A stretch of DNA of 64,000 nucleotides, taken from the IMG/VR virus record IMGVR_UViG_3300042503_002645, positions 1-64,000 of that record, one strand, 5' to 3'. Below the pieces are notes generated by a model, which saw only the letters and a program-made list of their open reading frames with translations, was not told the origin of the DNA and made no database searches. Below, piece after piece: positions 2,658-62,387 of this stretch. Within the stretch, counting starts at the first letter, position 1. Each line of letters starts with the position of its first letter. The position numbers and the translations under genes were made by a program. The DNA comes from a virus.

Positions 2658-3227
2658 ATGAGCAACTTTTCTGAGTTTTACACCCGGCTAGCCGTCAAGC
2701 AGGCAAGCCTGGCGCAGATGATGAAGGCCGCGCGCTGCTGGTCGGGCTACGAGCCGGTCCCGGGCAAGGCGCCCTACAGCGAGGACTCCTGCCGCCCGGC
2801 TGGCAGCAAGAAGAAGAAAGACGCGGCCAAGGAGAAGAAGGCCGCGATGTCTTCTTTCACGGCAAGCAAGCGTCCGACCATGACTCAAATGGCGCCAAAG
2901 CCCGCCGAGCCGCCCGTGAAGCCGCGTGTGGCGCCCAAGGGCGCGCCGCCGTACGTCTCTCTCGGACAACGCGCTGCCGAAGAAGCCGCTGCCAAGCGGC
3001 CGCCCGATGTGGGCACGATGGTCAAAATGCAGTCGGCCGGGCTGTCGCCCGCGCAGGCGGCCAAGGCGGCAGCTAGCTCGGTCTACCGCTGCGCGACGAA
3101 GACTCCCGAGGCCGTTGTCGACAGCAAGAAGCCGACGAGCATCGGGCAAGAGCACAAAGTGACGCGCCCTGAACCAGCTCAGTCCGAAGATCTCCGACCC
3201 GAGGAAGTGCAGCCGAGCAAGTCGTAA
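2658..3227 (+). CDS. Basic putative head-core protein with CWxGY Cys motif
   Basis: ACGGAGG RBS; KQA/KAA motifs; RCWSGYEPVPGKAPYSEDSC resembles a small motif seen in large-phage virion proteins. Confidence 0.5.
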   Translation: MSNFSEFYTRLAVKQASLAQMMKAARCWSGYEPVPGKAPYSEDSCRPAGSKKKKDAAKEKKAAMSSFTASKRPTMTQMAPKPAEPPVKPRVAPKGAPPYVSLGQRAAEEAAAKRPPDVGTMVKMQSAGLSPAQAAKAAASSVYRCATKTPEAVVDSKKPTSIGQEHKVTRPEPAQSEDLRPEEVQPSKS

Positions 3228-3238
3228 TAGATATCTAT
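3227..3238. repeat. AT-rich palindrome copy ATAGATATCTAT (dispersed AAAGATATCTTT family)
   Basis: Perfect 12-bp palindrome in the intergenic gap before phoH. Confidence 0.75.
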
Positions 3239-3270
3239 CACGCCACGCCCTGAAAAGGACTCCCGGCGCT

Positions 3271-3987
3271 ATGCGGAAAAATACAGTGCGGGTCGCGGAG
3301 AAAAAAACCGCTGAAAAAGCCCGCCGACGGCAAGAGCGCCAGGAAGTCCGGGAACAAGTTGTCCGGCAGCCTCTGGAGCTCACCTGGAAGACCAAGGCGC
3401 AAGCCGACGCCTGGTCCACGCTCGATAAAAGCCTTATCACTTTTTTGCTCGGCTCTGCGGGCTCCGGCAAGACGTTTCTCGCGATGGCCTGCGCCATCAA
3501 TGCCGTGCTGACGGGGCAAGCTGAGAAGATTGTGCTGACCCGGCCGATCGTCGACGCGGGCGAGAAGCTGGGCTATTTGCCAGGCACCTTCAACGAGAAG
3601 GTCAACCCGTACATGCAGCCGCTGTACGACGCCATGGAGGTGCTGGTCGGCAAGCAGTCTGCCAAGCGCGAGATGATCAACAAGGCGGTGGTGTTGGCGC
3701 CGCTGTGCTACATGCGCGGACGGACGTTCACCAACTCGATCTGCGTGTTCGACGAAGCCCAGAACGCGACCTTTGCGCAGCTCAAGCTTTTCCTGACGCG
3801 TTTCGGCGAGAACAGCCGTTTTGTCATCACCGGCGATCCTGATCAGAGTGATCTGCCGTTCTCGCCGCCGCCGCTGCGCGAAGTCGTCAGCAAGCTTTCG
3901 GGCGCGAAGGGCATCGGCGTGGTGAAGTTCGGCGAGAACGACGTCGTGCGGCACCCGATTGTCAAGACCATTCTGGCGCGCCTCTGA
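3271..3987 (+). CDS. phoH: PhoH-family ATPase
   Basis: Walker A GSAGSGKT plus LTRP, LGYLPG, MRGRT, DEAQN and TGDPDQSDL, all PhoH signature motifs. Confidence 0.95.
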   Translation: MRKNTVRVAEKKTAEKARRRQERQEVREQVVRQPLELTWKTKAQADAWSTLDKSLITFLLGSAGSGKTFLAMACAINAVLTGQAEKIVLTRPIVDAGEKLGYLPGTFNEKVNPYMQPLYDAMEVLVGKQSAKREMINKAVVLAPLCYMRGRTFTNSICVFDEAQNATFAQLKLFLTRFGENSRFVITGDPDQSDLPFSPPPLREVVSKLSGAKGIGVVKFGENDVVRHPIVKTILARL

Positions 3988-3992
3988 CGAGC

Positions 3993-4020
3993 TTGACCAA
4001 CAACTGGAGCGCGCTAAACT
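3993..4020 (+). promoter_or_regulatory. Sigma70-like promoter candidate
   Basis: TTGACC (3993-3998), 16 nt spacer, TAAACT (4015-4020), directly upstream of the gene at 4066. Confidence 0.4.
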
Positions 4021-4065
4021 CTTCGGCACCGTGCTAGGGTTTTCACCCCCATTGCTGGAGAAGCC

Positions 4066-4587: not shown

Positions 4588-4588
4588 A

Positions 4589-4885
4589 CTTCTTGGATCA
4601 CTCACCCCCTACGTAGGGTACATGCGGGAGTGTCGCAAGGGAGGCGGTTTGCTGCTGCGCGTTCGGCATGGCGGACGTAAGAGCGCAGACTTTTACCTGC
4701 GGAGTCAGCTGGGGCTGGCTTGCACCTTATCGGATAGCCGAGGTGCCGGGATGCGCGCAAAGATATCTTTGAGCGCTTAACGCTGGTTGCTGGGTTTTCA
4801 TGTAGTCCGAGCTTCCTTCGCCCTTACGCAACACGAGCACAAGCGGGACACGAGCGGTCCTGCTGCCAGCGCCCAGCCCGCGTTA
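4589..4885 (+). ncRNA. Possible structured non-coding element
   Basis: About 300 nt with no credible ORF and several stems (CACTC/GAGTG, CCCT/AGGG, CTGCGC/GCGCAG, GCACCTT/GAGGTGC, CGCTGG/CCAGCG). It contains the palindrome CAAAGATATCTTTG at 4758-4771. High GC makes chance stems possible. Confidence 0.3.
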
Positions 4886-4899
4886 TTCAGGAGTTCGCG

Positions 4900-5016: not shown

Positions 5017-5025
5017 CTCTCGCGC

Positions 5026-5975: not shown

Positions 5976-6006
5976 GCGCGACGGTTTACAGCCATTGGAG
6001 CGCGGC

Positions 6007-8539: not shown

Positions 8540-8548
8540 GGTCTGCGC

Positions 8549-9949: not shown

Positions 9950-10947
9950 GTAATTCATCGCCGACGACCGCGCCGCGCAAGATAATCTTTCGCAACTGGC
10001 AAAGCCCGGGCGACCTCGTGATGCTGCTGTTCGCCATCACGAGCCTGCACGAGTCGCATCCGGGCAAGTTCATCACGGACGTGGACTGCGGCGTCAAAGA
10101 TATCTTTGAGCACAATCCTCTGATTACGCCGCTGGACCGCGCGGATTCGGATGTCGAGGTGGTCCACGCCGAGTACCCGAGCATTCACCGCTCGAACACG
10201 CACTCGGTGCGGTTCGTCGAGGCTTTTGGCGAGTACCTGAGTGAGAAGCTGGGCGTGCCGATCAAGCCGACGCGCTTCCACAGCGTGCTGTACATCACGC
10301 CCGAGGAGCAGGGCTGGTTTTCGGGCGTCTACGAAAAACTCCAGAAAGACGTGCCGTACTGGGTCATCAACGCGGGGCACAAGTACGACTACACGGCCAA
10401 GGCCTGGAGCTTCGCGCGCTACCAGGAGCTGGTCGCCCGCTTCCCCGACGTCTGGTTCGTCCAGGTCGGCGCCAAGGAGCACAACCACCCCGAGCTGACC
10501 GGCCCCAACGTTCTGAACTTCATCGGGCAGACCACGATCCGGCAGATGATCCGTTTGGTCTACAACTCGTTCGGCGTGATCTCCGGCGTCAGCTTCCCCA
10601 TGCACCTGGCCTACGCTGTGCCGCCGCACCCGCGGTTCAATCGAAGTAGCCGCGCCAACATCACCATCGCAGGCGGTCGCGAGCCATCGCACTGGGAGGA
10701 GGGACCCAACCACCAGTTCCTCCATACGTGTGGTATGCTCCCCTGCTGCGACATGGGCGGCTGCTGGAAGAGCCGAGTGATCCCGCTGGGCGACAACGAC
10801 TACAAGGACAAGAACCTTTGCAGTCGCCCAGTGGTCATGGAAAACGGCCAGTGGATCGGCGAGTGCATGGCGATGATCAGCGTGGACGAAGTCGCCCGGC
10901 ACATTGAGCGGTACATGGCCTACTTGGATTACTCTCCTAAATTCTGA
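9946..10947 (+). CDS. Glycosyltransferase family 9-like (heptosyltransferase-like, GT-B)
   Basis: SPGDLVM, FEHNP, K.W....YQELV, FVQVG, GQTTIRQ, SFPMHLAYA and a C-terminal CM..I.V.EV pattern. Confidence 0.8.
   Translation: MSNSSPTTAPRKIIFRNWQSPGDLVMLLFAITSLHESHPGKFITDVDCGVKDIFEHNPLITPLDRADSDVEVVHAEYPSIHRSNTHSVRFVEAFGEYLSEKLGVPIKPTRFHSVLYITPEEQGWFSGVYEKLQKDVPYWVINAGHKYDYTAKAWSFARYQELVARFPDVWFVQVGAKEHNHPELTGPNVLNFIGQTTIRQMIRLVYNSFGVISGVSFPMHLAYAVPPHPRFNRSSRANITIAGGREPSHWEEGPNHQFLHTCGMLPCCDMGGCWKSRVIPLGDNDYKDKNLCSRPVVMENGQWIGECMAMISVDEVARHIERYMAYLDYSPKF
10094..10109. repeat. Perfect 16-bp palindrome TCAAAGATATCTTTGA
   Basis: Read directly; lies inside the GT9-like CDS. Confidence 0.8.
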
Positions 10948-10957
10948 AGGATCAGAG

Positions 10958-12419: not shown

Positions 12420-12431
12420 TGAGAACACGTC

Positions 12432-13726: not shown

Positions 13727-14353
13727 GTGTACGCCTCGATTCCGGCCTTCTGCATCAACCTTGATACCCGGCCGGATCGGTGGGCGCAGGCCGAGGCTGA
13801 GTTTCAGCGCGTGGCGTGGCCGGTCGAGCGCTGGCCCGCGATGCGCTACGCAACCTCGCCGGTTCCCGGACTTTCGGCAGGCGCGGCTGGCTGTCTGGAA
13901 AGCCATCGGCAGCTCTGGCGGCACTGCCTGGCTGCGGGTTTCTCCGTCATGGCTGTCTTCGAGGACGACGGCGTGCTGGCGCCGCGGTTCAAAGATATCT
14001 ATTCCAGCGTGGCGGCCCAGCTACCCGCGGACTGGGAAGTCTGGCACCTGCACAGCACCCACGCCCGGACAGCGCCCGTCAGCGAGGCCATCGTGGCGTA
14101 CCGGAGCAACGGCTGGGGCTCGCACGGCTACCTGATTCGACCCAGCGCCTGCGAGAAGCTCCTGCAGCTGGACAGCGCGCAGCCGGTCGACGCGCAGCTC
14201 ACCGGCGGCCTGCTCGCGTTGGGTGGACAACCCTATGGTACGGCGCTAGGCTGCGCCCTCTGTTTGCAACGCGGCGAAGATACGGACATCCCGGTGAACT
14301 CGCAGGTCGACTATTGGCGTCGGTTGCGCGGGCGCCTTTTTGAAGGACGTTAA
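13727..14353 (+). CDS. Glycosyltransferase family 25-like
   Basis: CINL..RPDRW, GCLESH..LW, VFEDD, HGYLI and PVD motifs. Confidence 0.85.
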   Translation: MYASIPAFCINLDTRPDRWAQAEAEFQRVAWPVERWPAMRYATSPVPGLSAGAAGCLESHRQLWRHCLAAGFSVMAVFEDDGVLAPRFKDIYSSVAAQLPADWEVWHLHSTHARTAPVSEAIVAYRSNGWGSHGYLIRPSACEKLLQLDSAQPVDAQLTGGLLALGGQPYGTALGCALCLQRGEDTDIPVNSQVDYWRRLRGRLFEGR

Positions 14354-18268: not shown

Positions 18269-19297
18269 ATGTCCGCTGTCATTGATATCTTTGCCTGGCA
18301 GCAGGTCCCCGAGCGGGTCAGCCAGCTTCTTCCCGAAGCGGCCAAGGTTCGCGCTCTGCACGAAAAGGCCGCTCTGGCCGCGGACATCCTGCCGCTCACG
18401 ATGGCGACCTGGAATCCCGAGGTCAACGCGCTGCTGCTTTACAGCAAGACCGGGCTGGGCAAGCGCGCCTACGAGACCTACGAAAAGGCGATCTACGACG
18501 GATCGCGGAGTTTCGCAGCGCTGGTCGGCGCGGAGCCGAACTGGGACGAAGAGATTCTCGTCAAGCGTGGCAGCTCGGCGTTGATTCCGGGCTACGACAA
18601 GCTCTGGAACTACAGCAACGCAGCCCTGGGCGGCCCCAACCCGATGACCAACGGCATTGTCTCGGCGCTGGTGCTGGGCGGGCTGGGTTACGGCGGCGGC
18701 GCCCTGGCGGAGCGGTTGTTCCCCGAGCGCTATCTCGAGCGCGGCAAGCTCCGGAAGTCGCTCGCCACCGCTGGCGCTCTGGGCGGCCTGGGGTTTGGCG
18801 CCGCAAACGCCTACGCCAACTCCCGGGCGATGAACAAAAGTTATCTCGAGGGGTTGTTCACCAACAACCACACGATTCCGCCTTATCTTCAGGAAAAGGC
18901 CAGCGTCGACCTCGGCCCCAGCCCCCTGACGTCCATGGACAGCGGGCTGTATGCGCCGTCGATTCCCGTGCCGCAGTTCAACCGCGCGGCCTGGATGGAC
19001 GTCAACAAAGGCCTGTACAACCCGGGCGGTATGCACACCCCGCCCGCATACGCGGCTGTTACCACCGGCATGATGAGCGGCATCAGCGCCGGAACGGGCT
19101 CCCAGGTCATTCGGCCTGTGGACGTGGTCAAGGGCTTCATGTCAGCCGGTGTCGGCCTGGCGACGGCAAATATCGCCGGAAAGACGTTGTCGGCGCTGGC
19201 CGGGTTGACTCCCGAAGCCCAGAACAAACTCCAAGACATGGGCCTGTGGGCCGGTATGATGCACGCCGTCGTGCCGCCGTTGTTCGGGCGGCGCTAG
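18269..19297 (+). CDS. Putative internal virion protein with glycine zippers
   Basis: No Cys; KAA/KRA/KAS motifs; GGLGYGGGALA and GALGGLGFG segments. Confidence 0.5.
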   Translation: MSAVIDIFAWQQVPERVSQLLPEAAKVRALHEKAALAADILPLTMATWNPEVNALLLYSKTGLGKRAYETYEKAIYDGSRSFAALVGAEPNWDEEILVKRGSSALIPGYDKLWNYSNAALGGPNPMTNGIVSALVLGGLGYGGGALAERLFPERYLERGKLRKSLATAGALGGLGFGAANAYANSRAMNKSYLEGLFTNNHTIPPYLQEKASVDLGPSPLTSMDSGLYAPSIPVPQFNRAAWMDVNKGLYNPGGMHTPPAYAAVTTGMMSGISAGTGSQVIRPVDVVKGFMSAGVGLATANIAGKTLSALAGLTPEAQNKLQDMGLWAGMMHAVVPPLFGRR

Positions 19298-21017: not shown

Positions 21018-21302
21018 ATGACTACTTTTCAGCTGCTCTGTCTCGTGTTGTTCGCCGGGGTGGTCTTCGCCGCCTACGGCAAAGATATCTATGGCTGGCT
21101 CAAGGCTCGCCTGCCCAAGCCGCCCGAGCCGGTGGGCCCCGCTGCGCCGAACACACCGACCGGCGACATCCTCGTGGACGAGCTGCTCGACATCGCTGCG
21201 CTGCGCGAGTATTTCGAGCAGGCGGGCTGCGCTGAGGGCGTCGAGGCGTGCTCGCTCCTGCTCAGGATCCTGATCGACCACAAGCATCCGCACGCGGAGT
21301 GA
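21018..21302 (+). CDS. Small N-terminally anchored membrane protein
   Basis: GGGAGG RBS; N-terminal TM followed by a Pro-rich linker. Confidence 0.65.
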   Translation: MTTFQLLCLVLFAGVVFAAYGKDIYGWLKARLPKPPEPVGPAAPNTPTGDILVDELLDIAALREYFEQAGCAEGVEACSLLLRILIDHKHPHAE

Positions 21303-28900: not shown

Positions 28901-30367
28901 CCCCACGTCTACGAGAAGTTCGTCAGCCAGCTCCGCGGCGCCGGGATCAACACCGTGCGCACCGGCACCAAGACGAACATCATGGCTATGACCGACAAGG
29001 ACGTCGATCAGCTGGCCGGTGACCGCGAGCTGCAGAACAGCGAGACGGTCGACTGGAAGGGCAAGCTGAAGCCGGTCAAAGGCGGCCTGTTCGACGAGCA
29101 GCTCACGGGCGGGCACAGCGGCAACCGCTGGAGCAAAATCACGCTCCACGAGCCGATGCCCAACCCGGTCATGGAAGAGCCGATTCGGCGCGTTCTCGGC
29201 CTGACCGAGAAGCAGTTCCGCGGCGTGCTGGCAGGCGAGGTCCATCTTTTCGATAAGACTGGCCCCGAGGCGCTCAAGGCGGCGCTGGGGCGGATCAACA
29301 TGCCCAAGGCCATCGAGCAGGCCCGGTTAGATATCAAATCGGGCCGCAAGGTGCTGCGCGACGCTGCCGTCCGGCGGCTGGGCTACCTGAAGGCCGCTGA
29401 GGCGCAGGGCGTGCATCCCGAGGACTGGATGCTCACGAAGATGCCGGTGCTTCCGCCGATGTTCCGGCCGGTGTCGCAGATGGGCGCCAGCAAGATGACG
29501 TTGGTTTCTGACGCGAACTACCTGTACAAGGAGCTGCTGGACAGCAACAACGCGCTCAAGGAAACGTCTGGCGCCTTCACCGAGTTCGGCGAAGAGCGGC
29601 TGGGTTTGTATGACGCCATGCGCGCCGTGACTGGGCTGGGTGACCCGACCCAGCCCAAGAACCAGGAACGCCGCGTCAAGGGGTTCCTCCAGCACATCTT
29701 CGGCAGCTCTCCCAAGTACGGCACGGTGCAGCGCAAGCTGCTCAGCACGACCGTTGACCTGGTTGGCCGCGCTGTAATTACGCCCAACCCCGACCTGAAC
29801 ATGGACGAGGTGGCGCTCCCCGAGGACAAGGCCTGGGACGTTTACAAGCCGTTCGTTGTGCGGGGCCTGGTGCGCCGCGGGATGCCGCGCATGAACGCAC
29901 TTGATGCCGTTGAAGGGCGCAACAAAGCGGCCATGGACGAGCTGCAGACGCAAATGTCGTCTCGGCCGATCGTTATCAACCGTGCGCCGGTGCTTCACCG
30001 ATACGGTATGATGGCCTTCTACCCGAAGCTCACCAAGAACAAGGTCATGGAGGTCAACCCGGTCATTACCAAGGGCTTTGGCGCCGATTTCGACGGTGAC
30101 GCGATGCAATATCACGTCCCCAGCACGGAAGAAGCCGCCAGGGAAGCCGCCGAAAAGATGTTGCCCAGCAAGAACCTCTTTTCGACGGCGAGCTTCAAGG
30201 CGCACTACGTTCCAAACAAGGACTATCAGGCTGGTGTGTATCTGGCCTCGAGTCGAGTCGACAAGCGGCAGAAGCCGCGGGTGTTCAAGTCCAGACAGGA
30301 CGCCATCAACGCGTATCACCGCGGCGACATTGACGTCGACACCCCGGTGCATATTGTCGATAGCTAA
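25988..30367 (+). CDS. DNA-directed RNA polymerase: beta subunit fused to the N-terminal half of beta'
   Basis: beta motifs RSVQPSHLG..TPE, LGKNLRVAY..NYEDAVVIS, GDKLTGRYGDKGVI and MKLHH. beta' motifs ETV...KP..GGLF, PVLPPMFRP, NRAPVLHR and catalytic GADFDGD (30080-30100). Confidence 0.95.
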   Translation: MPDSILSGPPVQPPTPRAFGDIGALRTGIFDRALQSASALEPVKNDLHTLQLHDVKYAGPEKFTKADQKRAILTGNSLHRRLTGTWSLLDNTTGQPIATRQTTIAHVPYLTDSGTFVNRGVEYTLAHQMRLKPGVYTREKDNGELEAHVNVLPGKGRMHRYFLDPKTGVMNINIGQAKIPLMPLLKAMGAKDSDIRAAWGNEITAVNMEKGDAGTLDKLYQRLVYKQVPGLDAPGKQQAIAAEFARMELDPDVTRRTLGKDYKNLTPEAILDITKKLIALNRKEADPDDRDAMAYQNVVGPEDLISERFTKDRQSLRKLLWRATAKKNLDHVPTGVFNKAISAALIGSGLGSSLEEINPAEIFDHQARVTRMGEGGIGSLDAVPQESRSVQPSHLGFVDFLRTPESGKVGVDMRFARGAMKGADGKIYTPVVNMKTGQSELKTPGELADMPLAFPGEDKSDMPMVAALVGGKMKYVPREEVQFSLPHMDNTFSGLSNMVPMKSYMKGHRVIMASRMFTQALPLVGAEAPLVQSAIADKDGSSYEDEMGEKLGAVRAQFHGQVVSAEPGMIVVRDREGKKHEIDLYNDMPFNRKTFWHQTPAVQPGDVFKPGQLLAHSNFTDKQGTAALGKNLRVAYLPFQGKNYEDAVVISASAAKKLSSEHMYQHEAEWDDNSRIGKKTFVSLFPTEYDKKTLENFDDKGAIQKGTVVNYGDPLILQAKTKETTYGKVHRGRAGSFSNETVTWEHHSPGVVTDVEHTDKGVQVVVKTQAEMQVGDKLTGRYGDKGVIADVIPDHQMPNDKDGNPFEILVSPLGLISRVNPAQIVEAALGKIAAKTGKPFKMKDFDSTADYVDFAQQELGKHGLSDTEDVLDPETGRKIKGVLTGNRFFMKLHHTAEAKGQGRAMGSYTAEGTPAKGGSEGAKRVGMLDLGALLSHGAGKVIRDAKMVRGQANPEYWSQFMAGYTPPLPKVPHVYEKFVSQLRGAGINTVRTGTKTNIMAMTDKDVDQLAGDRELQNSETVDWKGKLKPVKGGLFDEQLTGGHSGNRWSKITLHEPMPNPVMEEPIRRVLGLTEKQFRGVLAGEVHLFDKTGPEALKAALGRINMPKAIEQARLDIKSGRKVLRDAAVRRLGYLKAAEAQGVHPEDWMLTKMPVLPPMFRPVSQMGASKMTLVSDANYLYKELLDSNNALKETSGAFTEFGEERLGLYDAMRAVTGLGDPTQPKNQERRVKGFLQHIFGSSPKYGTVQRKLLSTTVDLVGRAVITPNPDLNMDEVALPEDKAWDVYKPFVVRGLVRRGMPRMNALDAVEGRNKAAMDELQTQMSSRPIVINRAPVLHRYGMMAFYPKLTKNKVMEVNPVITKGFGADFDGDAMQYHVPSTEEAAREAAEKMLPSKNLFSTASFKAHYVPNKDYQAGVYLASSRVDKRQKPRVFKSRQDAINAYHRGDIDVDTPVHIVDS

Positions 30368-35690: not shown

Positions 35691-36089
35691 ATGGGACACA
35701 GCACGATTTGGTCCGGCGAGACGGTGTTCGAGGCGACCAGCGGCGCAGAGGCCGTCGTGGCGCTCAAGGTGCCGCATCGCGGCGTGATCCGCGGTTTCAG
35801 CCTGTCGCAAACCAGCGGCGCCAACGCGGGCGCGGCTGCGGCGATCTACACCAGCAAGCAAGACACCACGCCCAACAGCACGCTCCCTGCCGAGGCGTTT
35901 CACATCCTCGACATTACGCTCACGGCGGCGGCCAAGGTTGATAATCACAACCTGAACGTCGCGTACGTGAACCGAGACGGCACGCCGACGAATCCGCAAA
36001 GATATCTTTACTTGAAGATCACCCCTGCAGGTTCGGGCGCCAAGAACTTCGTGTTCTCGATCACCATTGAGACGCCATCGCTGCGCTAA
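35691..36089 (+). CDS. Hypothetical beta-rich protein
   Basis: AAGGTG RBS; coupled to the downstream gene. Confidence 0.65.
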   Translation: MGHSTIWSGETVFEATSGAEAVVALKVPHRGVIRGFSLSQTSGANAGAAAAIYTSKQDTTPNSTLPAEAFHILDITLTAAAKVDNHNLNVAYVNRDGTPTNPQRYLYLKITPAGSGAKNFVFSITIETPSLR

Positions 36090-37020: not shown

Positions 37021-38949
37021 ATGCAGCCTCTTTCGAAACAGGCCGAGGCCAAGCTGATCGCGGCTATCGAGCGCGCGGCTTCGTACGTGAACGACGGCCT
37101 TGCGCCGAACGACGCCATCATCAAGAGCGCCTCGGAGTCGAGCATTCCGTCAGGACACATCAACCTGATGGTTCACGCCTACAACACCGGGCGTACGACC
37201 AAGCAGCGCGAGCAGGGCAACGACACGCTCGAAAAGGCGGCCGATTTCCCGCTGGCTGACGGCACGACCGTCATGGACGCGCTGTTCCCCAAGGCTGTGA
37301 AGACCTCCGCAGAGATTTCACGCGCTCAAGTGGTTTCCGCTGAATACGCCGTCGACCCAGCTGGCATGCTGGCACGCCGTAAGGCCGCTCAGGCCAAGGA
37401 AGCCGCCGCAAAGATATCTTTGCCCGCGCCGACGTGGGTCCCTCCGCCGCGTGACGAGGAGGCGGCCGCCCGGCGCGCTGCCTCCGAGAAGCGCGCCGCA
37501 GAGTTGGCCCAGGAAGAGCTTCGACGCCAGGCTACGGTCGCCTACGCAAAGGCAGCCGCGGCCATGGAAGAGCTTGGCGATTATTTCCGTCGTCCGGGCA
37601 ACATGAGCTTTCAGGACGCCGTGCGCGAGACCGATCTGCGCTTCGGCGACGAGGGCGTGAGCGTGCTCAACAAGCTCGCGCAGGTCTACCCACACCTCAC
37701 CAAGCAGGCCGCCACAAAGGGGGTCGTTATTGGCGAGTGCCAGCCCTGCAAGCTGGCCGCGGCCGTGCTGACGGCGCTCGAGGCGTACAACGAGGCGCAG
37801 GCCAAGGTGCCGGTGAAGGAGGCTGCGTGTAAGAAAGACACGCCAGTCTTTCTTACAGGTTCCATTCTCTACAACCCCGCCGACGAGCCACTGACGCTGA
37901 AGAGCGCCATGGCCGTAGGTGACCGCTATGGGCTGCTCGACCAGCCGCGTACAGGGCAGGAAGGAGCGCCGCGACTCGGCAACAAAGGGGTCGAGGTCGA
38001 TCCTGCCGCGCATGCGGACTTCGTAGCGCGCCGTCCGGCGCCGGGCCCCAATTTTCGTCTGGTGATGCCAGACCGCAAGCTCGGCAATCCGATCTGGGCA
38101 GCTGACGAAGAGCTGATGGACGAGGCTGCCTTCGACGAGCAGAAGGCGCAGCAGCTGGCGCTTGAGGCAGCGCGGCGTGATGCGCGGCGGTCAACGAGCA
38201 GCAGCCCGCTGGTCAACGCGGTCGACAACATTCTTGGCGGGGCAGACGACGAGGCCGCAGATTTCATTCCCGACGATGAGCCGACCGATGCCGGTGGTGC
38301 CAGCGCCGCTGGCGGTGGCGGAAGTTCGGGTGGTGGCGGGGGTGGTATTCGCGGCAGTGGCGGCGGCGCTCCAGGTGGCCCCAGTGGTCGCGGCAACCGC
38401 GGCCCCCGAGGCGGCGGGGGCGGTCCGCCGCCACCACCTCCGGGCGGTCCTCCGGGTGGTCCTCCGGGAGGCGGCGGCCGACGCCAGGGCGGAAGCGGTT
38501 CCGGCAAAGACACGGAGCCGCAGTCGTCCTTCCCGCTCACGAAAGGCGTGCTCAACGTTGCCAAGCGGCTGGTCCAGGGCGGGCTGGCGATGCAAAAGGA
38601 TCCGCGTGATTTGACCCGCGGCGCTTACAACACGCTGACCGATCCAGAACACGAATCCGAGCTGCGCAACATTCGCGCAAACGGCGTGCTGCATGACCTG
38701 GTGCTTAATGACCCGGTCATCTCCGGACACGACCCGCACGAAGTCGCGTTGGCGTTCAATGATCTTGCGGAGGTTGCGCCCAATTTCGTCGACTCGCCTG
38801 CTACAATGCAGGCTCTGTTGCGAAAGCGCCTCGAGGCTGGCCATCTGGCTGATTTCGACATCAAGCAGCTCATCGACATGGAAAAGACCCGCGCCGATAC
38901 GGAGAAGGCGCGTGTCGATACGATGGCCGCGGAACGCCAGCTTATCTAA
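37021..38949 (+). CDS. Putative head-core protein with Gly/Pro-rich insertion
   Basis: About 10 K-x-A motifs; Gly/Pro low-complexity tract at ~38290-38505. Confidence 0.55.
   Translation: MQPLSKQAEAKLIAAIERAASYVNDGLAPNDAIIKSASESSIPSGHINLMVHAYNTGRTTKQREQGNDTLEKAADFPLADGTTVMDALFPKAVKTSAEISRAQVVSAEYAVDPAGMLARRKAAQAKEAAAKISLPAPTWVPPPRDEEAAARRAASEKRAAELAQEELRRQATVAYAKAAAAMEELGDYFRRPGNMSFQDAVRETDLRFGDEGVSVLNKLAQVYPHLTKQAATKGVVIGECQPCKLAAAVLTALEAYNEAQAKVPVKEAACKKDTPVFLTGSILYNPADEPLTLKSAMAVGDRYGLLDQPRTGQEGAPRLGNKGVEVDPAAHADFVARRPAPGPNFRLVMPDRKLGNPIWAADEELMDEAAFDEQKAQQLALEAARRDARRSTSSSPLVNAVDNILGGADDEAADFIPDDEPTDAGGASAAGGGGSSGGGGGGIRGSGGGAPGGPSGRGNRGPRGGGGGPPPPPPGGPPGGPPGGGGRRQGGSGSGKDTEPQSSFPLTKGVLNVAKRLVQGGLAMQKDPRDLTRGAYNTLTDPEHESELRNIRANGVLHDLVLNDPVISGHDPHEVALAFNDLAEVAPNFVDSPATMQALLRKRLEAGHLADFDIKQLIDMEKTRADTEKARVDTMAAERQLI
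37408..37423. repeat. Perfect 16-bp palindrome GCAAAGATATCTTTGC
   Basis: Read directly; forces AT-rich codons AAG ATA TCT TTG in a GC-rich gene. Confidence 0.8.
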
Positions 38950-38959
38950 GGGTCTAGGC

Positions 38960-45675: not shown

Positions 45676-46692
45676 ATGGTCGTCATCGCCACGCCGAGCC
45701 CGTATCCGCAGGTACCGGTCCCGGACCCGCAGATCTCCAACGGGCAGCTTAACCCGGTTCCTTGCGCCACGCAGAACGTCATCAGCGCGCCCGTGTCGAC
45801 AGTGAACGGCGCCCCAGTCTACGGCCGGATGCGCGCCGTCACGTTCACGCAAGGCCAGTGCGGCGTCGTCGAGTGGCAGCTACACGACAAGGACGGGCAT
45901 CCGGTCAACCTGGAAAGCTGCGGGCTCACTGACGGCTCGCTGAGCGTGCCGGACGCGGAGTTTAGGGTCGTGCTGCGCCTCAAAGAGCAGCTCAGCATCG
46001 GAAACGCCAGGCGACCCATTGAAGTCGAGGCGCAGGTCATAGACGCGTCCGAGGGGCGTGTACAGGCCGAGATCACCAAGGGAATGACCGACCTGCCGGG
46101 TGTCTATTACGGCGAAATGGCCCTGGTGAGCGCCCAGGCCGAGGCAGCCGGACAGCCCTGTGTGATCTTCGGCAACACCTTTTCGGTGATCGTCAACCGC
46201 GGCACCTTCGGCCCGCTGGGGCAGGAAGGTGGTCCGCCGTCGATCGCCGAGATCCGCCTCCATCTTCGCGACAGCGCGCCCGGGGAGAGCTTCCTGCTCG
46301 ACAACCTGATGTTCGACGACGCGGAGATCGCGCTGGCCATCGCGCGGCCGATCATGTACTGGAACGAAACCCCGCCGCCGCTCGACGAGGTGTACAACAC
46401 CCAGAACTTCCCCTTCCGGTACCACTGGCTTGAGGGAATCTGCGCAAACTTGTTCCTGATGGTCGCCGAGCAGTTCCGCCGCAACGATTTCCAGTATTCG
46501 GCTGCGGGCCTGCAGATCAATGACCAGAACAAGGCCCAGGCCTACGAGCAGGCCGGGCAGACGCGTTGGCAGGCTTACCGGGAGTGGGTTCGGGCCACCA
46601 AGGCCACGATCAACCTCGAGAGTTGCTACGGCGAGGTCACGAGTACCTACAAGTACTCGGCCTACACCAGCGGCGCCCGGATGCGCTACTAA
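45676..46692 (+). CDS. Putative head-tail adaptor (neck) with N-terminal BppU/Ig-like domain
   Basis: D.DGHPVNL...DASEGRV....T...T.LPGVYYGE Ig-like domain, then a helical part with EIRLHLRD...FDDAEI..AI. Confidence 0.55.
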   Translation: MVVIATPSPYPQVPVPDPQISNGQLNPVPCATQNVISAPVSTVNGAPVYGRMRAVTFTQGQCGVVEWQLHDKDGHPVNLESCGLTDGSLSVPDAEFRVVLRLKEQLSIGNARRPIEVEAQVIDASEGRVQAEITKGMTDLPGVYYGEMALVSAQAEAAGQPCVIFGNTFSVIVNRGTFGPLGQEGGPPSIAEIRLHLRDSAPGESFLLDNLMFDDAEIALAIARPIMYWNETPPPLDEVYNTQNFPFRYHWLEGICANLFLMVAEQFRRNDFQYSAAGLQINDQNKAQAYEQAGQTRWQAYREWVRATKATINLESCYGEVTSTYKYSAYTSGARMRY

Positions 46693-46872
46693 AAAGTGCC
46701 AGAAACGCGGGCATATTAAGTGCCCACTGTTTTACCGTCAGGGGCCTTCCGCTTCGCATTTTGGCGCGTTAGATTCACGCCATTCTGTGAAATCGGAGGT
46801 TAGATATCTTTGACGCTCCGTGGTAGGCGTCGCGCGCTGGGCGCTCCCCAGCCCCCTGTGAAGGAGGCATCC

Positions 46873-47529: not shown

Positions 47530-48786
47530 ATGTCGAGCTTCAAGCGCCTATTCCCGTTCCGCCAGGTTTCCGTGGACCACATGGTTCGCGGCGTGACCCG
47601 CGTCTGGTGGCAGCTCGAGCCCGCTTTCAATGACCCGGGGCCGCACGTCTTTCAGCTCCAGTACGGCAACACCCCGCTGAACGACACGACTGATTGGCGC
47701 AATGTCGGCAGCCCGATCACCGACGGCTATGTGGCCTACGACGACGTCTGGCGCGCCGCAGGGGGCGATCTGGTAACGCATTACCGGCTGACCCTGACAA
47801 CCCCCAAGGACGTCTACATCAGCGCGCCGGTGAACTGCTTTGGCGAGCTGGCCGAGCGCGACTGGAACATTGCCCGGGAGATCATCCGCAAGGAACAGCT
47901 CCGTCACCGGTACGTCTCAGTTTCGGGCTACCTGATCAAGCCGTATCGTTTCGGCCGCCCCTGTACGCGCTGCCGCGATCAGCTGACCGGCGAAGTTCTG
48001 GATTCGAACTGCCCGGTCTGCTCGGGCACCGGCTTCGAAGTGGGTTATCACCCGGCGCTGCCACTCCAGTGCTGGGACGTCGAGCCGTACACCATCGAGG
48101 AAGACCAGGACGTTAACGCCCTGGGCACAACCCGGTCGAAGCACATGACCAAGGCCCGGGTGGTCGGCTTTCCGACGCTCAACACCAACGACATCTGGGT
48201 CAACGGCACAAGCGACGAGCGCTGGATTATTCACTCGATCAAGGTGGCTGCGGCGATCCGGGGCGTGCCGCTGATTTATGAAGTCGAGATGGGCTTGGTG
48301 CCGCTGACCAACGCTATCTACGCCCTCGAGGTCGGCGGCGAGCCCCCGGAACGACCGGGCCCCACGCTGCCAATCGTCGGCTGCGGCTCGGTGACCATCG
48401 ACCACAATTACGGCGGCGTTGATAACCTGGCCTACCTCGACGCTACCGGGTATCCCGTGGTGGGCGCCGCGGTGTACCTGTTTCCCAAAGATATCTTTGA
48501 GGCCGCCACGCCTGCGCTGCCTAACCGCGAGCTTGCCGTTGCCGGAACGTTTACACGCACCAATGGGCGCTGGCAGGACGCCGTGCGTGTGCCGCCTGGC
48601 GAATATGTTGTGCTGTACGAATACCCCGGCGCATGGGGCCCGGACCACGAGCACATTACAGCCGTCGAATCTGATGAGGGCAGTTCACAAGCCTGGCTGC
48701 CGATGATGGCCCCGCCGCCGGTGTCGCGGTGCAAACCCCGTAACACCGCCTCCCAGCGCTCCGACAATGATTTTTGGAACTTCTAG
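47530..48786 (+). CDS. Putative head-closure/neck protein with zinc finger
   Basis: CTRC......NCPVCSGTGF.VGY motif and beta-rich core; position between adaptor and tail terminator. Confidence 0.55.
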   Translation: MSSFKRLFPFRQVSVDHMVRGVTRVWWQLEPAFNDPGPHVFQLQYGNTPLNDTTDWRNVGSPITDGYVAYDDVWRAAGGDLVTHYRLTLTTPKDVYISAPVNCFGELAERDWNIAREIIRKEQLRHRYVSVSGYLIKPYRFGRPCTRCRDQLTGEVLDSNCPVCSGTGFEVGYHPALPLQCWDVEPYTIEEDQDVNALGTTRSKHMTKARVVGFPTLNTNDIWVNGTSDERWIIHSIKVAAAIRGVPLIYEVEMGLVPLTNAIYALEVGGEPPERPGPTLPIVGCGSVTIDHNYGGVDNLAYLDATGYPVVGAAVYLFPKDIFEAATPALPNRELAVAGTFTRTNGRWQDAVRVPPGEYVVLYEYPGAWGPDHEHITAVESDEGSSQAWLPMMAPPPVSRCKPRNTASQRSDNDFWNF

Positions 48787-56123: not shown

Positions 56124-57110
56124 GTGGAACTGGTAGAGAACCCGTACGTTTCTGATTTCACCAAGGCGACGCTCGAGCAGTTTGGCTGGAAGGTCGGCGA
56201 CGCCTTTCCAGCAACGCTCGGCGCGCTGCTGCTGCAGTTCAAGGAAACGGCGGCGCCCTCGTCGCGCACCGACGTGCTGGTGGACAGCGCGGGCCTCAGT
56301 CCGGCGCAGATTGCGGAGGTGCGCGCACTGCTGGCCGAGGCCAAACGGGTGGCGGCCAACCGCGATAAGACGGAAGCGGTCGAAGCGGAAACGCAGAACA
56401 TGTCTCCGGAAGTCGCGGCGCTCTACAAGACGCTTGAGGATGCCGGGCCGGAGATCGTCGACGACCGGGAAGCCCCGCCGCCCCCGCCGCCTGCTGCGCC
56501 CCAGACTCCCGCGCCGCCTGCCCCTGAACCCGCGCCTGCGGATGCCCCGGCAACCTCGGCGCCCATGGTGATCCTGCCGTTCTGCCCGCGCTGCGGCTGG
56601 GACATGCGGCAGAAGTTCGAGGTCGAGGTCACCGACAACGACAAGCAGGAGTTTCTGGCGTCGACCCTCGGTGGCCGCCGGTTCCAGCGCCGGTTTGATA
56701 TCTTTGGCGGCAAGCTGGTGCTGGTCTTCCGGTCGATGCTGGCCGAAGAAAACCGTCTGATCATGCGGCAGCTCGTGCTCGACCAGGCCTCGCAGGACAT
56801 CGTCACCGAGGACGAGTGGTTTCTTCGTCTCATGGAGTACCGCCTGGCTTGCTCGCTGGAACTCATGCTTGACGGAAACGGCAAGCCGCTGCATACCGTT
56901 CCGGAGCTGTCGCAGTTCCCGCACTCGCCGCCGCCGGACAAGCCACTGCAAACAGCCCTGGTGGGCCTGCGCGAGTTCGTGAACAACACGATCTTGCCGC
57001 ACGAGGTGACCCGGCGCATGGTTGGGCAGCAGCTGCGGTATTTCCAGCGGCTCGTTGAAGCCATTGAGGCTATGGCGCTCGAACCAAGTTTTTGGCACGG
57101 GATCGGGTAG
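56124..57110 (+). CDS. Putative tail assembly chaperone (with CPRCG knuckle)
   Basis: AAGGAGG RBS, GTG start; upstream of the tape measure gene; ends ..EPSFW. Confidence 0.55.
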   Translation: MELVENPYVSDFTKATLEQFGWKVGDAFPATLGALLLQFKETAAPSSRTDVLVDSAGLSPAQIAEVRALLAEAKRVAANRDKTEAVEAETQNMSPEVAALYKTLEDAGPEIVDDREAPPPPPPAAPQTPAPPAPEPAPADAPATSAPMVILPFCPRCGWDMRQKFEVEVTDNDKQEFLASTLGGRRFQRRFDIFGGKLVLVFRSMLAEENRLIMRQLVLDQASQDIVTEDEWFLRLMEYRLACSLELMLDGNGKPLHTVPELSQFPHSPPPDKPLQTALVGLREFVNNTILPHEVTRRMVGQQLRYFQRLVEAIEAMALEPSFWHGIG

Positions 57111-60400: not shown

Positions 60401-61001
60401 GCAAACAAAGGAGCTCCGCGAGCAGTACGCCAAGGCGCTGCAAGGGGACGCAGCGGCGTTGACCGCGCTCGAGAAAACCGAGTCCACAGATTCGATCACG
60501 CGGCTCAAGTCGCTGATCTCGGCGAAGACGGAAGCGGTCAAGGGCAACATCATGGCCGACGCGGGATTCCAGACCCGCTTCAGCACCGCCGACGACGCGC
60601 TCCAGCAACAGGAAGTCCAGAAGCGCGCCGAAGAGGTCACCAAGCAGAACAACGAGATCAAAGCGCGGGCCGCTGGCCGGGACCCCGCCGACGCAGCGCA
60701 GAAAGACACACCCGTTCCCGACGCCACGCAGCAGCTCGCCTCAGCGACACTGCAGGCCAGCACGGTGCAGCTCACGGCCCAGGCGGTCAACATGAACGCC
60801 GCCCCCGCCGTCGACGATGTCGCGTCTGGAACGCGGTCGCTCACGCCGTTGTCCGCCGTGGGTTCAGACGGGAACCAGCTCGTTGTGAACGGCACACTGA
60901 CCCTGGACAACATGCACCGAGCCGTGCTCGAGGTGGTGGGCGACAAGCCGCTGGAGACGCCGGACGGTCCGCCGATCATGAACGCACACGTTTACGGTTG
61001 A
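57483..61001 (+). CDS. Tape measure protein
   Basis: 1172 aa, helical, Ala/Met/Gln-rich, no Cys or Trp seen; canonical position after the chaperones. Confidence 0.75.
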   Translation: MPNPLDPFSGGMFRVPHYGPGQSASMMQDPMSTMIMLFGMPILQQQLGGRDKFLPHLTPNQALMDQFMASQYQRANMNATLAASQAGQAAVSNRVAGLMSMMTGQPVTPLNREQSDNIAGVINNPVVKMVLGQMIGPDNLEAVMFGRHGDPSALAGAVGRTGFFRQDPMGGQRMTAKSLEEFTKSIHANLYGEGADVDQMRGFMAGQAGQMFENLFQRGMLPQSIGALTPAERVRAIGDEARRDDATMNRLAEEMARTELMQSTELFDGRRFDEVTEQERKTILEGRLPTYRGRVDDTMRKIDEFRNNDPRASSVEDIEKSAGFDSLARNVDGVKAANKVKEFAGAVSAVREIFGDNGNPNAPMPALLAALDQLTQGTMAQMSTGKVENTLRQMRLAAKDAGIGMEQLMGMSGEISAYGDTLGIARPISLQNTVNAALMTQAMRQAGSFDKPVFGRMDQATASREAAMRIQQGDASGVGKTLASMARAVAENPTQYAGTEVEALVSAYNNGQETYNFDGKTVNLAQLAGVGGAPALAELFTRPENKGNMATLEMFSYDQTTQRYMKPGYAVLAQRFQLQRDMANSNLGGAIMDLVDAKGFENVAAGLGIPLTDPDAERFGFGKMFASGLADVILSETGNMNPEERVDYLMKDNRVGRMLEQQFVAAGYTPDEAKRRAEASMPLVIGNTPEEQRDRLGRFLSAADVDAQAITGRSLAANAQMQSPAVQANYVRNQQRSEARSERYRAMAMGNESSLLQRVFEEVDKVSQGETFSLERVANVLSVAGMEQKYAAGIAAGLESAYGERAKLFVSKPEVDDLKARAEKGDQAAIKQLKFMTGVKDGTEVVSADDISTKLGLKSNEEINDIYKRLVDAGETDTAKQITALSTAAGIENVAGVLDPDKDQITQAQLSNLAEGTVGRVFKGSTVEEQRASRDRAREIETYTNAVYNAAGLETAAGSLATEAASARKLSEPQTKELREQYAKALQGDAAALTALEKTESTDSITRLKSLISAKTEAVKGNIMADAGFQTRFSTADDALQQQEVQKRAEEVTKQNNEIKARAAGRDPADAAQKDTPVPDATQQLASATLQASTVQLTAQAVNMNAAPAVDDVASGTRSLTPLSAVGSDGNQLVVNGTLTLDNMHRAVLEVVGDKPLETPDGPPIMNAHVYG

Positions 61002-61018
61002 CCGGGGAGTAAATCTAC

Positions 61019-61570
61019 ATGGCTACTAGCGTATTCTCTCCGCGCACCGGCGCCGTCGTGAAGGTGAAGCCGGACGCGTCGACCACGGGGGTCTTCACGA
61101 TCACCGTGAACGGCGCCCCGCTCACGCTGCCGGTTACGGGCTTCGCGCTCGACATGAACACCAACCACCAGTTCCTGCACACGCTCAACGACTTCATTTA
61201 CGTTCATGTGTTCGGCGAGCGAATCGGGGAGCTGACCGTGTCGGGCATGTGCTTCATGGGCGACACCTGCAACAACCCCGAGCTGTCGGTGAAGAGCGCG
61301 CTGACGCAGTACAACCAGTACCGGCTCTCGAAGACCAAGCGCGGCTATCCGATCGCGCTCTCTGACGCGGGCACGTTTTGGGGCTTTCTGACCGGCATGC
61401 GCATCGACTCGGCTCGGCCCGACCTGATGATGGCGCAGTGGTCCATGCGGTTCCACGTCATCCAGAACAACAGCGGACCTATTTCCAGCCTCAACATGTG
61501 GCGCCCGCCGTCTTCAAACTACATGAACACGTTCCCGGGCGGCTTCCTGGACGGCCCCGTGCTTACCTAG
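61019..61570 (+). CDS. Tail tube initiator/baseplate protein (tube-like fold)
   Basis: N.QF..TL...IYV..FGERIG.L.VSG pattern; follows the tape measure gene. Confidence 0.6.
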   Translation: MATSVFSPRTGAVVKVKPDASTTGVFTITVNGAPLTLPVTGFALDMNTNHQFLHTLNDFIYVHVFGERIGELTVSGMCFMGDTCNNPELSVKSALTQYNQYRLSKTKRGYPIALSDAGTFWGFLTGMRIDSARPDLMMAQWSMRFHVIQNNSGPISSLNMWRPPSSNYMNTFPGGFLDGPVLT

Positions 61571-61583
61571 TCGGATTGCTGCC

Positions 61584-62387
61584 ATGATCAACCACGCACG
61601 CACCCTGTTGCTGAACGTACCCGGCGCGACGAGCAGCCACGCTGCCGTCGGCGAGGAGTACATTCCGCCGACGTACGCGCCGCTCCAGGAGCCGTCCTAC
61701 ACCCAGGCCGTGCGCCGCACGCTGCTTGGGACGTCGCCGGACCGGTACTTCCTGAACTTCCGTGCGCGGGAGCTGATGCATAACATTCACCAGACGGAGC
61801 TGGCCGAGTACGTCTACGCGCTGGACCCACGGGTGACGTACTGGCCGGAGGTGGACACGCCTTTCCTGGGCGCCGGGTCAAAGATATCTATTGCACGCGT
61901 CGCCGGGGCAGGCAACAGCCGCTTGGTCGTCGTGGGCCAGCCAGTTGCCGACAACGGCCGCGGTCGGGCGCTGCGCGAGTACGATGTCGAGGTAGACGCG
62001 ACCAACCTGACTGTCTCGGCGGTGCTCCTCCGCGGCGAGCCACGCGCGGCTGAAACCGCGCCGCTGGCCACGGTCGACGGTATGTCGGCGCCGGTGCGCG
62101 CACCGCGCAGCCAGCTTTCCGTTAAAGTGGCATTGCCCGAGACTGGCGACCGCTGGCGGTTGACTGCGCTGGCCCGGCCCGAGCCCGCGATCACCACGCT
62201 ACTACCGATCCTGGAAATTCTGGGCGAATCGGTGTTTCTTGGGTTGTTCGGCGTCGGTAACGCTGAGCCGTACAACACCTTCAAAAACCTGTGGCTCGAC
62301 CACCCCGATCCAGCGTACCGGTTGGGCGGTCTGACCATGGCGTTGATTTACCGCACGAACGACATCAGGAACGGTATCAATGTCTAG
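61584..62387 (+). CDS. Hypothetical baseplate-region protein
   Basis: Coupled ORF with native codon usage. Confidence 0.6.
   Translation: MINHARTLLLNVPGATSSHAAVGEEYIPPTYAPLQEPSYTQAVRRTLLGTSPDRYFLNFRARELMHNIHQTELAEYVYALDPRVTYWPEVDTPFLGAGSKISIARVAGAGNSRLVVVGQPVADNGRGRALREYDVEVDATNLTVSAVLLRGEPRAAETAPLATVDGMSAPVRAPRSQLSVKVALPETGDRWRLTALARPEPAITTLLPILEILGESVFLGLFGVGNAEPYNTFKNLWLDHPDPAYRLGGLTMALIYRTNDIRNGINV

Follow-up and report, generated by a model that had tools for sequence, protein, structure and literature searches.

A dispersed, evenly spaced GATATC palindrome as a candidate docking site for a symmetric DNA-binding protein in a group of large phages

Short DNA sites repeated along a whole genome have precedents, including the repeats of Cluster O mycobacteriophages, the stoperators of Cluster A phages and the KorB operators of plasmid RK2. 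Here, we describe a further dispersed palindrome, centred on GATATC, in a stretch of 64,000 nucleotides (nt; the window) that forms the first 64 kb of the 119,044-bp virus record IMGVR_UViG_3300042503_002645 (G000), and we follow it in related phages. Among published patterns, the 17-bp palindrome of Cluster O comes closest. In their section on repeats, Cresawn et al. (2015, PMC4351075) describe the dyad TGTTCGGNNNCCGAACA, with 7-bp arms and a 3-bp spacer, which occurs 34 times in Corndog, between genes, near gene starts and inside genes; most repeat positions are common to relatives, and the authors link the repeats to indels and take them to be sites for a dimeric protein of unclear function, most of them not near promoters. 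The GATATC sites resemble this pattern in that tens of copies of one short palindrome are spread genome-wide, between and inside genes, with shared positions and a link to indels. Where Cluster O dyad repeats exceed 30 copies between and inside genes, we count 30 in G000 and 40-49 in complete relatives. The differences are an unrelated phage and host, another sequence and length, and, in Cluster O, 70-kb genomes with about one site per 2 kb (PMC4351075). Re-spelling between lineages, a test of even spacing, and codon-aware or amino-acid effects are not described in that section on repeats.

Cluster A phages carry 20-30 repressor sites genome-wide, most of them not at promoters, where bound repressor blocks elongation, and in the published account of these stoperators the consensus differs between sub-lineages and tracks repressor divergence (Mavrich and Hatfull 2019, PMC6550527; stoperators are also treated in PMC9283540). 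The sites described here are likewise dispersed and mostly off promoters (30 in 119 kb, with 16 of 20 copies of a promoter-like motif described below having no site within 100 nt), and their lineage-specific re-spelling parallels a consensus that tracks its repressor. Stoperators, however, are described as asymmetric, bound by monomers and oriented with transcription, in temperate phages whose repressor has been identified (PMC6550527), whereas the GATATC sites are palindromic and have no directional flank. No HTH repressor family was found in the proteins we scanned, most of which have no recognisable family, and no relative was found inside a host chromosome among 185,579 species genomes.

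Plasmid RK2 carries 12 OB sites. These KorB operators are palindromic and dispersed, some lying 4-10 bp upstream of promoters and others at distances from 45 to more than 1,000 bp (McLean et al. 2025, PMC11790492). Similarly, 4 of the 20 promoter-like motifs have a site abutting their upstream box and the rest are distant, and the palindromes, at 12-16 bp, are of the size of the 13-16-bp loading sites of the ParB-parS and KorB-OB systems. By analogy with the CTP-dependent loading and sliding of clamps in those systems, a clamp of this kind would explain the value of even coverage. In contrast to those systems, most GATATC sites are intragenic, and no ParB/KorB-family protein was detected among the scanned proteins.

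A fourth comparison concerns the form of the site. The operators of phage P22 cluster beside the repressor gene. The six natural P22 c2 operators share the consensus ATTTAAGATATCTTAAAT, which is read by a homodimer through two half-sites one helical turn apart, with a non-contacted ATAT centre (PMC5175364). The central 10-mer of the sites described here, AAGATATCTT, is identical to the centre of ATTTAAGATATCTTAAAT, and the layout of two 4-5-bp inverted half-sites around a 4-bp AT-rich centre is the same. By this analogy, such a sequence is workable for a dimer of the Cro/CI type; the resemblance is one of sites only and is not evidence of a related protein. The outer half-site is TTAAG in P22 and AAAG, ATAG or ATTG here; in addition, the sites are dispersed (minimum gap 449 nt) rather than clustered at divergent promoters, and no HTH_3-type gene was found in the scanned proteins.

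In the literature on this motif in phages, on jumbo-phage palindromes and on dispersed dyad repeats, we found no description of a GATATC lattice. New here are the test of arm independence, the conservation test calibrated with controls, the comparison with P22 and the negative result in Salmonella phage Arash, together with the associations of sites with stop codons, convergent junctions, promoters and synteny breaks.

Enrichment of the palindrome and selection on DNA

G000 is 58% complete by CheckV, which puts the full genome at about 200 kb; its GC content is 62.3%, and our own gene calls, made with a simple in-house caller, place 136 of 141 genes on the + strand and 92% of the DNA in genes. 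A preliminary description of the window had listed ten copies of AGATATCT and put the number expected by chance below one. All ten starts proved exact (3229, 4761, 10098, 13993, 21083, 36000, 37412, 46802, 48489 and 61882), and 100 dinucleotide-preserving shuffles gave an expectation of 0.12 and never more than 2 copies. Of the wider form WWWGATATCWWW, the window has 15 copies and the 100 shuffles have 0. The 119-kb record holds 18 copies of AGATATCT and 30 of WWWGATATCWWW; over this length an order-3 Markov model predicts 1.2 copies of the former per strand (36 seen versus 2.31 with both strands pooled) and about 0.005 copies of AAAGATATCTTT, of which 9 are seen (18 versus 0.01 pooled). These counts lie far above both Markov and shuffle expectation. 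The pattern read backwards has 0 copies in G000, in the records of 10 relatives and in 28 loci around the polymerase gene.

The enriched unit is larger than its core. Three A/T bases on each side (W3) flank 30 of the 48 GATATC copies in the whole record, and the 18 copies without such flanks compare with about 15 predicted from base composition (an arithmetic estimate), so the hexamer alone is neither avoided nor enriched. The palindromes span 12-16 bp, and the perfect 14-16-bp forms reported at 4758, 10094, 37408 and 48486 are legible in the flanks. Six further copies had been called partial; their GATATC cores are real (18284, 29330, 31558, 32164, 47499 and 56697) and carry W3 on both sides in 5 of the 6, but the copy at 47499 is merely a half site.

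Inside genes the motif is read in all three frames, as had been pointed out. With frames derived by hand from our own gene coordinates, the ten cores comprise three non-coding copies (3229, 4761 and 46802), four read as K-D-I-F/Y, one as Q-R-Y-L (36000) and two as K-I-S (37412 and 61882). The D-I frame is preferred among coding copies, which fits the fact that the other two frames need ATA or AGA, both rare codons in the codon usage, or risk the stops TGA and TAG.

We used each genome's own codon usage to obtain the expected rate at which a given peptide would be spelled as the motif. All six KDI[F/Y] peptides of G000 are spelled AAAGATATCTWT, where 0.05 would be expected, and 12 of its 19 x-D-I-y peptides are spelled W3GATATCW3 (0.13 expected). 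The same holds in relatives, with 14 of 14 KDI[F/Y] peptides spelled AAAGATATCTWT in G004 (0.35 expected) and 4 of 4 IDIN peptides spelled ATTGATATCAAT in G001 (0.05 expected). The peptides themselves are in excess: KDIF and KDIY each occur 3 times in G000 versus 0.1 expected from amino-acid frequencies, and are thus about thirty-fold commoner, from which it follows that the DNA signal shapes protein sequence. An orthologous K-D-I-K at 31558 reads AAA GAT ATC AAA in G000 and AAG GAC ATC AAG in G004, and the optimum in unconstrained non-coding DNA is the fully symmetric ATAGATATCTAT. Selection acts on the DNA, not on the protein; the proposal of DNA-level selection is borne out by the codon-aware test and by the positional conservation between G000 and G004 described below.

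Spacing and re-spelling in related phages

Among named phages, Salmonella phage Arash and Vibrio phage D69 come nearest to G000, with only about 33% identity in the polymerase, and a megablast of positions 30000-40000 against a phage collection gave no match. Closer relatives exist among uncultivated viruses: 28 related IMG/VR loci show 72-89% identity, several of them on contigs of 194-205 kb. The relative G004 is a 204-kb record that IMG/VR classes as having direct terminal repeats and that CheckV rates 100% complete; its two ends share 73 bp, a repeat that is uninformative on the true genome ends.

In each of the four genomes analysed, sites are spaced more evenly than random placement would give (coefficient of variation, CV, 0.52-0.73 versus about 0.95). 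For the sites with W3 flanks, the CV is 0.58 in G000 (P = 0.0012), 0.59 in G004 (P < 0.0002) and 0.66 in G001 (P = 0.005). Gaps are neither very short nor very long, the minimum being 449 nt, and the sites follow one another roughly every 4-7 kb over the whole genome. The preliminary description had listed a packaging or injection signal among its candidates; copies spread genome-wide, in the complete 204-kb relative as well, speak against that role.

The flanking DNA of G000 and G004 is about 70-80% identical. Across this distance 14 of 22 alignable sites retain the GATATC core, compared with a rate of 0.18 for control 6-mers (P = 3e-6), and the 12-mer is kept at 9 of 22, compared with 0.045 for controls (P = 2e-7). 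In coding DNA, sites emerge through point changes and not through insertion. Each lineage has its own spelling around the retained GATATC core, namely CAAAGATATCTTTG in G000, ATAGATATCTAT in G004, TCATTGATATCAATGA in G001 and a weaker TTTAGATATCTAAA in G003; G001, for example, holds 31 copies of TGATATCA and only 2 of AGATATCT.

Site number varies with relatedness. Genomes whose polymerase is 82-89% identical to that of G000 (G010, G004 and G001) have 40-49 sites with W3 flanks, those at 74-78% have 8-13, and G003 still carries 17 evenly spaced copies of AGATATCT. The 40-49 copies in complete relatives compare with 30 in the 58%-complete G000. Arash has 1 WWWGATATCWWW site and no enriched palindrome of a comparable kind; lacking the lattice, it was dropped as a cultured model.

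A candidate docking site for a symmetric protein dimer

These sequence patterns make it moderately probable that a sequence-specific DNA-binding protein docks at the copies as a symmetric pair. The anatomy of the sites points in this direction. Information in the sequence logos is limited to about 14-16 bp, laid out as two 4-5-bp inverted half-sites around a 4-bp AT-rich centre, with no directional flank and no second element; a mild left/right asymmetry is confined to coding copies and fits codon constraints. Complementarity between the two arms equals the expectation for independent arms at five flank positions in each of three genomes (15 of 15 tests; minimum P 0.13), and hybrid sites such as AAAG...CTAT and ATTG...CTTT are frequent. 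Arms that vary independently in this way speak for a pair of identical protein subunits rather than for a hairpin or cruciform. Each subunit would read one half-site of 4-5 bp, (C)AAAG or ATAG in G000, on either side of a conserved AT-rich ATAT centre closed by G and C, which would be the geometry of an operator of the Cro/CI type. The binding site for a dimeric protein proposed in the preliminary description thus stands in its anatomy, through independent half-sites and the lineage-specific re-spelling of both arms; the search described below turned up no binder. Given that sister lineages keep GATATC and yet re-spell both arms, the binder is probably phage-encoded and has probably co-evolved with its sites.

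The placement of the sites suggests what such a protein may do. Fully non-coding copies make up 20-33% of the total, compared with 6-7% of random points and 9-13% of AT-rich control 12-mers. Three genomes supply 37 intergenic copies flanked by + strand genes on both sides, of which 21 overlap the stop codon of the preceding gene or lie within 9 nt of it; intergenic copies stand 10-130 nt before the next start (median 60), and a simple left/right sign test on them is not significant (22/37). A site occurs within 450 nt at 7 of 10 convergent junctions and at 1 of 10 divergent ones, the junctions being partly orthologous across genomes and so not independent. At the junction of the terminase gene in G004 and G001, a site fills the 12-35-nt gap between converging stop codons. 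Where gene order differs between G004 and G001, intergenic sites are more common than at colinear junctions, both in G004 (14/76 versus 1/32, P = 0.037) and in G001 (15/60 versus 1/32, P = 0.0085), counting intergenic gaps of at least 20 nt.

Four genomes together contain 20 strict copies of a family-wide promoter-like motif, GCTRAA-N13-18-GGCATAT; every copy follows the gene strand, and 19 are non-coding. The phage's own polymerase and sigma factor probably use this motif as their promoter. In 4 of the 20, a palindrome precedes GGCATAT, its centre 30-51 nt away; three of these palindromes, at 30-31 nt, abut the upstream box. About 0.75 motifs with a site within 100 nt would be expected by chance. 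The motif also occurs at L066:6086 (record position 86086).

Sites that follow stop codons, separate converging genes or closely precede promoters suggest a complex at the ends of transcription units. We propose that selection holds one site per approximately 4-7 kb across the whole genome and, where no intergenic gap is available, forces a site into coding DNA through rare AT-rich codons, even fixing K-D-I-F/Y. The bound protein may act at transcription-unit boundaries, as a road-block or insulator, or as a global operator-binding protein like KorB; the road-block and parS/KorB-like candidates of the preliminary description may each describe the sites. Intragenic copies would fill gaps, being passable, temporally regulated, or simply keeping coverage even, and such evenness would be suited to a protein that slides or spreads after loading at the sites.

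Several observations weigh against this reading. Roughly two thirds of the sites are intragenic, which is awkward for a strong road-block, and a role at transcription-unit boundaries leaves the tolerance of intragenic copies unexplained. The junction counts come down to about four independent cases, the stop-codon, junction and synteny statistics rest on the simple gene caller, and the closer pair G000/G004 shows no enrichment at synteny breaks (5/10 junction sites). Conservation in relatives, above control for G004, is not above control from G000 to the more distant G001 (4/15) and G003 (1/8), which indicates that positions turn over while site number is maintained. None of 138 G000 proteins matched a helix-turn-helix (HTH), ribbon-helix-helix (RHH) or ParB family at E <= 0.001, scans against PHROGs, Pfam and NCBIfam gave no DNA-binding family, and lenient rescans gave nothing in 79 proteins at E <= 0.5, nor in 93 against NCBIfam. 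Likewise, 103 proteins of G004 (from the half that G000 lacks) contained no HTH, RHH or ParB family, and a lenient rescan of 77 G004 proteins added nothing; outside this set were ten G004 genes and most of the other half of that genome, the greater part of which has orthologues in G000. The two candidates with faint family matches also fail on distribution. One is a pair of neighbouring genes, 46873-47157 and 47157-47435 (the latter with a weak Sigma70_r4 match, E = 0.035), which looked auto-regulated because a site lies between the promoter-like motif and the first gene; the pair is absent from G001. The other, a 270-residue protein of G004 with a weak HTH_36 match (E = 0.036), is absent from G001 and G003. 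Lastly, the binder might be a host protein.

Other parts of the search concern particular families and genes. Most proteins of these phages have no recognisable family. Pfam and NCBIfam gave no match to a ParB/KorB-family protein (ParB N-terminal domain) in the 138 G000 and 103 G004 proteins, an HTH_3-type (Cro/CI-type) gene was not found among the proteins scanned, and open reading frames (ORFs) in the non-coding gaps offered nothing obvious. The preliminary description had suggested gene 36089-37018 as an HTH/ParB-like protein, which its lack of any PHROG, Pfam or NCBIfam match does not support. Its product has 309 residues and 231 homologues, none with a Pfam domain, and in the best 120 of the 231 its length is constant and identity is 60-83%. 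An AlphaFold model (overall predicted local distance difference test score, pLDDT, 66) has a helical N-terminal half, confident over residues 1-145 (pLDDT about 90) and poor after 175; no PDB structure matches this model, which is of low confidence overall (the best Foldseek E-value is 0.8, and VIA-align gives Z < 5). A PD-(D/E)XK endonuclease gene, 5095-5520, was rejected as the binder since it is absent from G001 and G003, and 33 genes present in G004 and G001 and absent from G003 were dropped because G003 also has the lattice. The two genes of the neighbouring pair named above are paralogous, with 92-94 codons and about 30% mutual identity, and lie behind a promoter-like motif and a lattice site; they are 48-50% identical in G004 and replaced by unrelated genes in G001.

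Among alternatives, it is very unlikely that the palindrome is itself a promoter, or a promoter core, read by the phage RNA polymerase (RNAP) and a sigma factor for one temporal class, in the manner of the short T4 late promoter, with copies in upstream genes driving downstream genes. The excess of non-coding copies, their distance from the next start, their occurrence at the boundaries of variable gene cassettes, one copy that follows an intrinsic terminator in G004, and a total of 30-49 per genome, a number suited to a promoter class, would all fit such a role. Over all sites, however, the next start is a median of 330-390 nt away, and no more than 27-39% have a start within 200 nt, compared with 22-25% of random points. 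The logos have no directional flank or second element, a sigma factor reading one strand leaves the symmetric re-spelling of both arms unexplained, the site between converging genes in G004 and G001 has no gene downstream, and a distinct, rigid promoter-like motif is already present. A role as a folded structure, either an RNA hairpin in termination, processing or stability or a DNA cruciform read by a polymerase or nuclease, is hardly credible. The sequence is palindromic, many intergenic copies directly follow stop codons, and the copy at 4759 tips an optional hairpin of a conserved element in which the G001 version alters three pairs on both sides. Against this stand the independence of the arms and the common hybrid sites, predicted RNA hairpins of just -0.8 to -5.3 kcal/mol, the 50 nt downstream of sites, which fold no better than controls, and logos in which no T-run follows the sites. 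The cruciform element suggested in the preliminary description is disfavoured by the same arm tests and weak hairpins.

We also give little credence to the idea that the sites are targets or signals for a DNA-processing enzyme, whether cut or nicked for recombination-dependent replication, Chi-like signals that restrain a host nuclease, or short homologies through which co-infecting relatives exchange cassettes. Even genome coverage suits protection or initiation signals, the genes of G004, a complete relative, include those for an exonuclease and for RecA-like and SbcC-like proteins, intergenic sites occur at synteny breaks, the PD-(D/E)XK gene adjoins the site at 4759, and the Cluster O repeats were tied to indels by the authors who described them (PMC4351075). 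On the other side, that gene is missing from G001 and G003, which keep the lattice; sites in coding DNA arise by point changes and not by insertion; and cleavage of both strands at a palindrome would break up the genome. Asymmetry and G-richness are features of the known Chi sites, which further counts against this explanation; the asymmetry with orientation bias of a Chi-like class, recognised by the host RecBCD/AddAB, is not seen in the logos, where the sites are symmetric. Similarly improbable is that the sites bind a host protein, a nucleoid-associated or global regulator recruited by the phage, with the different spellings reflecting different hosts. Our family scans turned up no phage-encoded binder, site density varies between sub-clades, and Arash, a cultured distant relative from an enteric host, has no lattice; yet with most proteins lacking a recognisable family the failed search is weak evidence, and close phages (RNAP 82-89% identical) spell the same positions differently, which resembles co-evolution within the phage, as described for stoperators and their repressors (PMC6550527). 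A broader version of the docking-site reading, in which the protein acts on the whole chromosome, is unlikely: the lattice would provide loading or stopping points for a protein not recognisable by family, either a clamp or spreading protein or a row of road-blocks for RNAP, and its spelling would also serve as a label. As a clamp with no visible ParB domain, such a protein would load every 4-5 kb or so, and the entire genome would be coated, compacted or shielded by it in place of a phage nucleus; as road-blocks, the sites would pace RNAP along a genome with more than 95% of its genes pointing one way and so set the order of expression. In either case, the lineage-specific spelling could mark self from non-self between co-infecting relatives.

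Individual sites, their surroundings and significance

The lattice sites of the window and the promoter-like element beside one of them are as follows.

3227..3238, non-coding: lattice site ATAGATATCTAT, overlapping the last stop base of gene 2658-3227 and 32 nt before the PhoH-like gene 3271-3987
4758..4771, non-coding: lattice site CAAAGATATCTTTG, within the optional hairpin of a conserved structured non-coding element
10094..10109, in gene 9946-10947: lattice site TCAAAGATATCTTTGA, a 16-bp palindrome read as K-D-I-F; kept in G004
13991..14002, in the glycosyltransferase-like gene 13727-14353: lattice site AAAGATATCTAT, read as K-D-I-Y; not kept in G004
18281..18292, starting 12 nt into ORF 18269-19297: hybrid lattice site ATTGATATCTTT, read as I-D-I-F; G004 has CAAAGATATCTATG at the same place
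21081..21092, in gene 21018-21302: lattice site AAAGATATCTAT, read as K-D-I-Y; identical in G004
29327..29338, in the RNAP beta/beta'-N gene 25988-30367: weaker site TTAGATATCAAA, read as L-D-I-K; core kept in G003, not in G004 or G001
31555..31566, in the RNAP beta'-C gene 31342-33222: weaker site AAAGATATCAAA, read as K-D-I-K; G004 has the same peptide in GC-rich synonymous codons, GAAGGACATCAAGC
32161..32172, in the RNAP beta'-C gene 31342-33222: weaker site AAAGATATCAAA, read as K-D-I-K; identical in G004
35998..36009, in gene 35691-36089: lattice site AAAGATATCTTT, read as Q-R-Y-L; identical in G004
37408..37423, in gene 37021-38949: lattice site GCAAAGATATCTTTGC, a 16-bp palindrome read as K-I-S-L; identical 14-mer in G004
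46676..46716, + strand: promoter-like element, a loose copy (ACTAAAA box, spacer, GGGCATAT) in which ACTAAAA replaces GCTAAA
46800..46811, non-coding: lattice site TTAGATATCTTT, between the promoter-like GGCATAT (46710), 96 nt upstream of it, and gene 46873-47157, which starts 61 nt further on
48486..48499, in gene 47530-48786: lattice site CAAAGATATCTTTG, read as K-D-I-F; lost in G004, which has GAAAGATGTTTTTG
56694..56705, in gene 56124-57110: weaker site TTTGATATCTTT, read as F-D-I-F
61880..61891, in gene 61584-62387: lattice site AAAGATATCTAT, read as K-I-S-I

Some of these places recur in relatives. The phoH orthologue of G004 is likewise preceded by a site, 31 nt upstream; the place of the site at 4758..4771 (core 4762) is kept in all three close genomes, G004 included, with the spelling GTTTGATATCAAAT in G001; and the arrangement around the site at 46802 is also found in G004, where the site is spelled ATAGATATCTAT. 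The promoter-like element at 46676..46716 is a signal separate from the lattice. The non-coding element that holds the site at 4758 spans about 280 nt (window 4640-4935, + strand), is bordered by genes 4066-4587 and 5095-5520, and has no Rfam, tRNA or tmRNA match. When 10 distinct relatives are aligned, 52 pairs are predicted, 13 of them with compensatory changes. The palindrome is part of a hairpin of about 36 nt, which 4 of the 10 relatives lack. Scans of the window for tRNAs and Rfam families found nothing.

Regarding gene content, the multisubunit RNAP is split in an unusual way, with the whole of beta joined to the front of beta' (25988-30367) and the rear half of beta' encoded as its own gene (31342-33222). 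Weak matches point to an HK97-type capsid protein at 43754-44680 and a tail sheath at 49773-52595, and a sigma-70-like gene lies just outside the window at 64052-64864 (L065:2052-2864). The terminase large subunit (L067:1451-3304) and a tyrosine recombinase (L067:5550-6461), both outside the window, are among the few minus-strand genes, and both form a convergent junction with a lattice site 79-438 nt upstream. A tandem array of AGCTCC-like hexamers occupies L065:17700-18300 (record 79.7-80.3 kb, outside the window) within a 2.5-kb gene-poor stretch; a second set of over-represented k-mers (AGCTCTAG and similar) proved to be merely this array. Window positions 3001-13000 are contained in 4 DNA runs, labelled as lake-water or algae metagenomes, and no RNA run holding this segment was found. 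In the RNAP-based scan of species genomes, relatives appeared only on two short contigs of one metagenome-assembled genome.

A DNA signal that overrides codon choice and fixes tetrapeptides in dozens of unrelated proteins points to a function that the phage cannot do without, and the annotated gene set offers nothing that explains an evenly spaced lattice over a 200-kb genome. The intergenic copies at synteny breaks bear on the movement of gene cassettes between related phages. If the binder is found, the lattice would reveal a new global regulator or chromosome-organising system for large phages, would provide natural orthogonal pairs of protein and site (of the AGATATCT and TGATATCA types), and would give a handle on how phages with their own polymerase time or insulate transcription.

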